This document shows, one piece after another, positions 48,537 to 49,160 of a DNA stretch of 64,000 nucleotides. Source of the DNA: Escherichia coli (lineage in GTDB: Bacteria > Pseudomonadota > Gammaproteobacteria > Enterobacterales > Enterobacteriaceae); the NCBI RefSeq assembly GCF_013315695.1, contig NZ_CP054353.1. The stretch is one strand, 5' to 3'. Each line of letters opens with the position of its first letter. Within the stretch, counting starts at the first letter, position 1. The position numbers and the translations under genes are program-made. The notes under the pieces were generated by a model, which was given only the letters and a program-made list of their open reading frames with translations, was not told where the DNA came from and ran no database searches.

Positions 48537-49160
48537 ATGAGCCATCATCACGAAGGGTGTTGTAAACATGAAGGCCAGCCACGCCATGAGGGCTGCTGCA
48601 AAGGTGAGAAGTCAGAACACGAGCACTGCGGACACGGTCACCAGCATGAACACGGTCAATGCTGCGGTGGTCGCCACGGTCGCGGCGGCGGTCGTCGGCA
48701 ACGTTTCTTTGGTCACGGTGAATTACGTCTGGTGATTCTGGATATTCTCTCGCGCGATGACAGCCACGGTTACGAATTGATTAAAGCGATTGAGAATCTA
48801 ACCCAGGGGAATTACACCCCAAGCCCGGGTGTCATCTACCCGACGCTGGATTTTCTGCAGGAGCAGTCGCTGATTACCATCCGCGAAGAGGAAGGTGGTA
48901 AGAAGCAGATTGCGTTGACCGAACAAGGCGCGCAGTGGCTGGAAGAAAACCGCGAACAGGTGGAGATGATTGAAGAACGCATCAAAGCGCGTTGCGTTGG
49001 CGCAGCGCTGCGCCAGAACCCGCAAATGAAGCGGGCGCTGGATAATTTTAAAGCGGTACTGGATTTACGCGTCAACCAGAGCGATATCACTGATGCACAA
49101 ATAAAAAAGATCATTGCGGTGATCGACCGCGCCGCTTTTGATATTACGCAACTGGATTAA
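48537..49160 (+). CDS. yqjI: PadR-family metal-responsive repressor with His/Cys-rich N-terminus
   Basis: 207 aa; MSHHHEGCCKHEG... then PadR winged helix. Confidence 0.9.
   Translation: MSHHHEGCCKHEGQPRHEGCCKGEKSEHEHCGHGHQHEHGQCCGGRHGRGGGRRQRFFGHGELRLVILDILSRDDSHGYELIKAIENLTQGNYTPSPGVIYPTLDFLQEQSLITIREEEGGKKQIALTEQGAQWLEENREQVEMIEERIKARCVGAALRQNPQMKRALDNFKAVLDLRVNQSDITDAQIKKIIAVIDRAAFDITQLD

Follow-up and report, generated by a model that had tools for sequence, protein, structure and literature searches.

The His/Cys-rich N-terminal tail of the PadR-family regulator NfeR (YqjI) is nearly fixed within Escherichia coli and rebuilt between enterobacterial genera

In the 64,000-nucleotide stretch of E. 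coli DNA analyzed in this study (hereafter the window), one regulatory gene opens with a segment in which histidine and cysteine residues are concentrated. The ORF translation of this gene begins with MSHHHEGCCKHEGQPRHEGCCKGEKSEHEHCGHGHQHEHGQCCGGRHGRGGGRRQRFFGH, which is the same as the sequence quoted in the original prediction. What such a segment does for the regulator that carries it, and how freely its length varies, are the questions raised by this locus. The gene and the folded domain of its product are as follows.

48537..49160, plus strand: nfeR (yqjI) coding sequence, 207 amino acid residues plus stop, identified from the ORF list, identity to protein cluster P0001 and RefSeq nfeR.
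48735..48944, plus strand: PadR winged helix-turn-helix domain, residues 67–136 (PF03551, E-value of 2.5e-15, 56.6 bits, cut-off 27).

The original assignment of this gene to the PadR-family regulator YqjI, which is now named NfeR, was confirmed by the PF03551 match and by the identity of the window protein to P0001 (100%), the members of which are named 'DNA-binding transcriptional regulator NfeR'. The protein was also 99% identical to P0002, which its source names NfeR, and the RefSeq feature beneath the match was nfeR in 5,422 of the 5,426 complete E. coli genomes. The first start codon past the upstream stop is the ATG at 48537, with a Shine-Dalgarno sequence, AAGGAGG, at 48525–48531. RefSeq annotates the same start codon in every fetched locus. 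Given that this start is identical in the fetched loci, that substitutions in the tail are nearly all synonymous and that the length variants are in frame, the tail is translated. The folded part of NfeR resembles the PadR and LmrR structures found in the PDB with Foldseek. With the PadR domain at residues 67–136, the tail precedes the folded part of the protein and is not included in it.

At the nucleotide level, nfeR of the window was 98.9% identical to that of K-12-derived strains. It is a minority synonymous allele, for which a whole-gene identity of at least 99% was found in only 118 of 5,423 genomes, and nfeR of strain MS 21-1 was 100% identical to it. For the first 184 nt of the gene, in contrast, 4,460 genomes had an identity of at least 99%; the observed differences were synonymous and mostly in the part encoding the body of the protein.

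The tail and its motifs are as follows.

48537..48704, plus strand: His/Cys/Gly-rich N-terminal tail, residues 1–56, predicted to be disordered (AlphaFold2), with no Pfam or PDB match.
48549..48566, plus strand: HEGCCK motif 1, residues 5–10, recognized from the sequence and similar to the nickel-binding EEGCC pentapeptide of Hpn.
48585..48602, plus strand: HEGCCK motif 2, residues 17–22, recognized from the sequence.
48651..48698, plus strand: imperfect 24-nt tandem repeat encoding HGQCCGGR and HGRGGGRR, two copies, 75% identical, spacing 24.
48657..48671, plus strand: third Cys pair, QCCGG, residues 41–45, recognized from the sequence and duplicated in strain M21816.
48693..48716, plus strand: RRQRFFGH junction from the tail to PadR helix 1, residues 53–60, recognized from orthologue conservation, pLDDT of about 78.

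The His/Cys-rich N-terminus that had been pointed out is real. Residues 1–56 contain 12 His (21%), 7 Cys (12.5%) and 13 Gly, and the 151 residues that follow (57–207) contain only 2 His and 1 Cys. With the long ORFs of the same window as the background (2.4% His and 1.0% Cys), the binomial probabilities of this enrichment were 8e-9 for His and 1.5e-6 for Cys. The cysteines are at positions 8, 9, 20, 21, 31, 42, and 43 and include three Cys-Cys pairs. A diverged repeat of 12 residues, HEGCCKHEGQPR/HEGCCKGEKSEH, makes up the first half of the tail and holds both HEGCCK motifs. Two HEGCC motifs and one QCCGG motif support the metal-chelating make-up with paired Cys that had been proposed from the letters for 48537–48720. 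These coordinates correspond to codons 1–61, i.e., the tail together with the conserved RRQRFFGH junction. In the wider family, R56, F58, G61, and L63 are each at least 90% conserved.

In the AlphaFold2 model, for which an alignment of 87 sequences was the input, pLDDT was below 50 for residues 1–47, about 78 for residues 51–60, and above 90 for residues 61–207. In the sequence searches, the alignments between NfeR and relatives of solved structure begin almost exclusively at about residue 56, although one alignment (3l9f) reaches residue 32. Searched alone, the tail had no match in the PDB. Its 20 matches among 5.8 billion proteins were only fragments or frameshifted stubs of E. coli NfeR, and these tail-only searches, the sensitivity of which is lowered by bias filters, did not find the tail module on other protein architectures. 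An out-of-frame ORF of 55 codons overlaps the tail in the window (48568–48735, plus strand), and four short proteins of 65–66 residues from public assemblies (P0312, P0317, P0322, and P0323), which are rare, are truncated NfeR that are frameshifted from the tail into this frame. These fragments are probably sequencing errors or sporadic pseudogenes.

The neighborhood of nfeR provides the context in which the tail has to be read. The neighboring gene and the sites between the two genes are as follows.

47485..48249, minus strand: nfeF (yqjH), siderophore-interacting ferric reductase (FAD_binding_9, 1e-36; SIP, 2e-25; RefSeq nfeF).
48270..48291, no strand assigned: operator-like palindrome TAATCAGATATATCTAAATAAT beside the nfeF start (inverted repeats I1 and I8).
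48296..48314, no strand assigned: Fur-box-like site with 14 of 19 matches to GATAATGATAATCATTATC, among the six best in the 64-kb window.
48344..48357, no strand assigned: mid-spacer palindrome ACTGATATATCTGT, the third one with GATATATC (inverted repeat I13 and direct repeat D3).
48489–48500, no strand assigned: half-site repeat by the nfeR-proximal palindrome, from the repeat search.
48498..48519, no strand assigned: operator-like palindrome AATTAGATATATCTAATT, about 20–30 nt upstream of the start of nfeR (inverted repeats I1, I6, and I9).

Thus, nfeR and nfeF are divergently transcribed and separated by a spacer of 287 nt, and the aerotaxis receptor gene aer lies downstream of nfeR on the opposite strand. 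The three palindromes of the spacer are all built on GATATATC and are of the AGATATATCT type. The nfeF-proximal and nfeR-proximal ones form the direct repeat D2 and are 90% identical. AGATATATCT was found at the two equivalent positions in all nine fetched E. coli loci with this spacer (L001–L009) and also at the equivalent positions in another enterobacterial locus (L016). A strict search of the 64-kb window for Fur boxes with at most three mismatches returned no site; Fur control of yqjH is part of the title of a previous report (Wang et al., 2011; PMC3019823). Between the operator sites, the middle of the spacer also contains a REP-like, GC-rich palindromic element, GTCGGATGCGGCGTGAACGCCTTATCCGGCCTAC, at 48395–48436, whose arm occurs once in the window. 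On the other side of nfeF, between this gene and mug, is a tRNA gene (47356–47431, plus strand) whose CAT anticodon was assigned to Met by ARAGORN, while its equivalent is annotated as tRNA-Ile in RefSeq. We take this tRNA to be of the lysidine-modified ileX type.

NfeR has been described as a repressor of nfeF, with excess nickel relieving this repression (Wang et al., 2011, PMC3019823; Wang et al., 2014, PMC4135662), and the gene layout with its spacer palindromes fits this description. In the literature, nfeR is also expanded as 'Nickel-responsive Fe-uptake Regulator' and stated to be induced by nickel stress. In Klebsiella pneumoniae, deletion of nfeR increased the expression of nfeF 85-fold, and the nickel sensitivity of the deletion mutant was unchanged. 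Blahut et al. (2018, J Inorg Biochem) reportedly found that the nickel-induced loss of DNA binding requires the conserved N-terminal cysteines of YqjI. The metal-chelating tail is in this respect an already known, published feature of a named regulator; our search of the open-access literature found no account of the tail itself. The chemistry of such motifs has been described. Cys-Cys motifs are documented anchors for Ni(II) and Zn(II). With Ni(II), they give planar complexes in which the ligands are two thiolates and the amide between them, and the stability of these complexes exceeds that of complexes with Cys-His motifs. Motifs containing His and Cys are also promiscuous, with Zn(II), Ni(II), and Fe(II) all being bound.

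We consider it likely that NfeR, a nickel-responsive repressor acting on the operators of the nfeF-nfeR spacer, senses Ni(II) by binding it with its disordered tail. The composition of the tail, its predicted disorder, the gene arrangement, the operator-like palindromes, and the pattern of conservation described below support this reading. According to the proposed mechanism, NfeR would bind to the palindromic operators of the spacer and shut off nfeF as well as its own gene, and the metal-free tail would be unstructured. The His residues and the three Cys-Cys pairs of the tail would bind Ni(II), probably as square-planar sites with thiolate, amide, and imidazole ligands. Compaction or cross-linking of the tails by the metal would then disturb DNA binding and relieve repression. 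We infer this coupling step from the position of the tail, which runs straight into the basic RRQRFF arm and PadR helix 1. Nickel selectivity does not follow from the sequence alone, because peptides rich in His and Cys also bind Zn, Co, Fe, and Cu. Through NfeR, nickel stress is connected with the release of siderophore iron, and the tail is presumably the sensor in this connection.

The original prediction also held that the tail is prone to length variation between strains. For E. coli itself this part held only weakly, as the length is nearly fixed. The nfeR span was exactly 624 nt in all 59 full-coverage rows of an even sample of the 5,423 ranked gene matches, and the tail span was exactly 184 nt in all 38 interior rows of an even sample of the tail matches. 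The survey of the 5,426 genomes was based on evenly spaced samples and variant-specific queries, by which indels of 3 nt may be under-counted. Compared with the window, four divergent E. coli alleles had 13–17 synonymous and 0–1 non-synonymous differences over the gene; in the tail, each had three synonymous differences, and one of them also had the non-synonymous change H3Y. The tail protein sequence of Escherichia albertii and Shigella is the same as that of E. coli, and that of Escherichia marmotae differs only by an extra His-Glu.

In-frame tail duplications were found in about 21 of the 5,426 complete E. coli genomes (approximately 0.4%), most of them in the Nissle 1917 lineage.

Nissle 1917 lineage, 17 genomes: perfect 21-nt tandem duplication, GGRHGRG.
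Two Nissle assemblies, 2 genomes: duplication query matched over only 79%; the fetched locus (L008) contains three copies and encodes 221 residues.
Strain DSM 103263, 1 genome: 24-nt duplication.
Strain M21816, 1 genome: different 24-nt duplication, which adds a fourth Cys pair.

These duplications, of 21, 24, 24, and 42 nt, all fall within one hotspot of about 50 nt that encodes Gly, Arg, and His (48651–48698). All of them are tandem, keep the reading frame, have perfect copies, and arose at short direct repeats; they represent at least three independent events, and every length variant in the examined complete genomes is a multiple of 3 nt. The difference in copy number among the Nissle assemblies reflects either ongoing copy-number change or a difference of assembly. 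The Nissle-type nfeR loci are found at 502–1146 of L009, 502–1167 of L008, and 1201–1845 of L001, with the duplicated segment equivalent to 48669–48689 of the window. In the protein collection, singleton tail deletions of 1, 2, 6, and 8 residues were found in the same area as the duplications. This collection also contains a small number of frameshifted stubs, possibly due to errors in sequencing. Tandem Repeats Finder detected no array in the window between 48400 and 48900. Given the lack of an array and the standard length in all 59 and all 38 sampled rows, the E. coli tail was rejected as a contingency locus of the microsatellite type. In E. coli UTME-3 (L017, 458–2954), nfeR is a pseudogene that lacks its first 170 nt, which normally encode the tail; the usual place of the tail and nfeF is taken by a truncated gene for an integrase and a gene for an IS3 transposase. 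This loss may have resulted from the insertion of an island at the nearby tRNA gene.

Between genera, the expected variability was found. Among 109 full-length clusters of orthologues whose bodies were 71–100% identical to that of E. coli NfeR, the tail ahead of RR[Q/P]RFF occurred in 36 different lengths, the shortest of 9 and the longest of 90 residues. RR[Q/P]RFF itself was present in all 109 clusters and was directly preceded by GGG in 106 of them. Four orthologues with 17, 26, 42, and 98 residues before the start of the GELR helix were checked for synteny, and all four are divergent from a SIP reductase gene, so they are true orthologues. Orthologues of Leclercia (P0090, tail of 26 residues) and Citrobacter (P0041, tail of 98 residues) are among those with this divergent layout, and P0073 has a His-only tail of 17 residues. 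The variation in tail length is weak within species and strong between species. In evolution, the tail behaves as a module of low complexity that gains and loses length when replication slips; it is near-constant in E. coli and has been rebuilt between genera.

Salmonella enterica has a dominant NfeR form of 214/215 residues and several minority length alleles. The allele of 222 residues, found in 59 contigs, has a duplication of seven residues, GCGRHGQ, at the site equivalent to that of the Nissle duplication. The allele of 192 residues has lost both Cys pairs and that of 195 residues has lost one, and in a partial allele the module with the Cys pair is duplicated. The Salmonella homologs with length alleles are P0346, P0050/P0337, P0333, and P0335. 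The nfeR homolog of Citrobacter sp. R56 (L015, 2519–2704) contains a coding minisatellite with a 60-nt unit in 3.1 copies (91% matches). This minisatellite encodes repeated GCCKGEGHQHEGCHQEHHQE modules in a protein of 245 residues.

The recurrence of such changes suggests a further reading, in which the tail would be a rheostat that can evolve. The threshold of de-repression for nickel or another metal, and its cooperativity, would depend on how many Cys-Cys/His modules are present and on how long the Gly/Arg/His linker is, and slippage at xGRHGx would be adaptive. The 21-nt duplication fixed in Nissle 1917, with three copies in one assembly, the GCGRHGQ duplication of Salmonella and the two to four modules of Citrobacter are examples that could be explained in this way. 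We regard this proposal as speculative and on the whole unlikely. If it were true, the recurrent slippage at the xGRHGx site would represent adaptive tuning of the cross-talk between iron and nickel rather than neutral noise.

Cys content was far less uniform than His content among the orthologues. No Cys was found in the tails of 26 of the 109 clusters and at least one Cys-Cys pair in those of 49, with the number of Cys ranging from 0 to 10. His made up 12–47% of the tail, with a median of 26%, in 107 clusters, the remaining two being frameshift-like oddities. As judged from these sequences, Cys content is clade-specific, with Cys confined among the close orthologues to the Escherichia/Citrobacter/Salmonella group, and richness in His is general. 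This is compatible with a tuning role of the tail, which the original prediction had put forward as probably setting the metal specificity of the repressor. Genuine orthologues with Cys-free and very short tails speak against a simple picture, as do the unchanged nickel sensitivity of the K. pneumoniae mutant and the metal promiscuity of such peptides. Given the Cys-free tails of 26 clusters and the tails of only 9–17 residues, Cys-based nickel sensing is not the general mechanism of this orthologue group.

The same spread of composition bears on another reading, according to which the tail serves as a broad metal sponge or buffer, or as a general sensor of metal excess (Fe, Zn, Co, Cu, or Ni). 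Its specificity, if any, would then come from elsewhere, for example from the availability of metals in the cell or from the C-terminal domain. Radically different tail compositions in orthologues argue against one precisely built site, His/Cys sequences bind metals promiscuously, Cys-Cys pairs also have a high affinity for Zn(II), and the target gene nfeF, with its Fur-box-like site, is a gene of iron metabolism. A repressor present in low copy would, however, be a poor metal store, and the published work ties de-repression specifically to excess nickel. This reading is accordingly rather improbable, and the nickel-sensor reading is retained.

Extensions similar to the tail are found beyond the Enterobacteriaceae orthologues. 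A search of 1.84 billion representative proteins with the body alone (from RRQRFF) identified 1,555 relatives at an E-value of 1e-10 or better. Among the best 138, aligned from the N-terminus, most have an extension of 30–120 residues with many Gly, Arg, and His and, as a rule, no Cys; in some distant members of the family the extensions contain few or no His or Cys. A low-complexity extension is thus a family trait, in which richness in His is common, and the version with Cys pairs is an elaboration found mainly in Escherichia, Citrobacter, and Salmonella. The reductase neighbor was absent from all three distant relatives inspected (35–45% identical to NfeR). The distant relatives with Gly/Arg/His-rich extensions were for this reason rejected as NfeR orthologues, and the link between tail and reductase is limited to Enterobacteriaceae. 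A palindrome of the NfeR type, TTAGATATATCTAA, was found just upstream of distant relatives, at 3882–3897 and 3941–3955 of L010 and at 937–952 of L012. The relatives concerned, P0251 (263 residues) and P0201 (216 residues), are roughly 35–40% identical to NfeR and have no reductase neighbor. The wider PadR subfamily may thus have kept both the mode of DNA recognition and autoregulation despite differing targets.

Whether the tail matters at all was also considered. It could be a largely neutral, disordered extension whose lengths are slippage noise, in which case the PadR domain and the C-terminal domain, both folded, would read the signal. Fast turnover between genera, with the 36 lengths and, outside Escherichia, a tail identity to E. 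coli of 10–64% compared with 71–81% for the body, would agree with neutrality. So would the lack of predicted tail structure in AlphaFold2 and the Gly/Arg-rich extensions of distant relatives, some of which have few or no His/Cys. A neutral tail would not, however, be expected to remain near-invariant as protein in E. coli, Shigella, and E. albertii, the synonymous sites of which do vary, nor to keep its His enrichment in 107 of 109 clusters at a level far beyond chance. We judge neutrality very unlikely.

Finally, the seven Cys in 56 residues and the inclusion of yqjI, in a meta-analysis, among genes responding to several stresses might indicate that the paired Cys are a thiol redox switch or iron-sulfur ligands that tie nfeF to oxidative stress or iron-sulfur status instead of nickel, but many orthologues are entirely without Cys and the literature searched contained no support for this idea, which is hardly credible. 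To our knowledge, the spacing of the Cys in the tail fits no known classical iron-sulfur motif.

The sensor tail proposed for NfeR varies in nature from 9 to 90 residues, with and without Cys, on a conserved repressor, and these variants are a ready panel for work on threshold and selectivity. The comparative picture, in which the tail is nearly fixed within E. coli, with rare in-frame duplications at one hotspot, and remodelled between genera, is possibly useful to the field of metalloregulators.

Compared with known systems, the locus is that of YqjI/NfeR of E. coli K-12: the gene, the length of 207 residues, the divergent nfeF, and the spacer palindromes are the same, and nothing of substance differs. 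Similar to the coding minisatellites and other slippage-prone regions, nfeR has changed in length by perfect tandem duplications that keep the frame and arise at short direct repeats. Different from a high-frequency contingency locus, however, E. coli nfeR has no array, and variants occur in about 0.4% of complete genomes.

Hpn of Helicobacter pylori is a nickel-binding protein with two EEGCC motifs. NfeR shares with it a very high His content (21% in the NfeR tail) and the X-E-G-C-C pattern, which occurs twice as HEGCC in NfeR and twice as EEGCC in Hpn. Different from the NfeR tail, Hpn is a free-standing protein of 60 residues for storage and detoxification and not the tail of a regulator. 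Homology of the tail to Hpn or to another known metal-binding tail was not detected in the tail-only, bias-filtered searches, and the resemblance would be best read as convergent composition.

PadR of Bacillus subtilis, LmrR, and Rv3488 have the same winged helix-turn-helix fold as residues 61–140 of NfeR and, as dimeric repressors, act on palindromic operators. The known ligands of canonical PadR regulators are organic, such as phenolic acids and drugs, with the exception of Rv3488, whose ligand is cadmium. NfeR goes beyond the canonical PadR regulators in having the metal-binding tail, and its helical domain at the C-terminus is longer.
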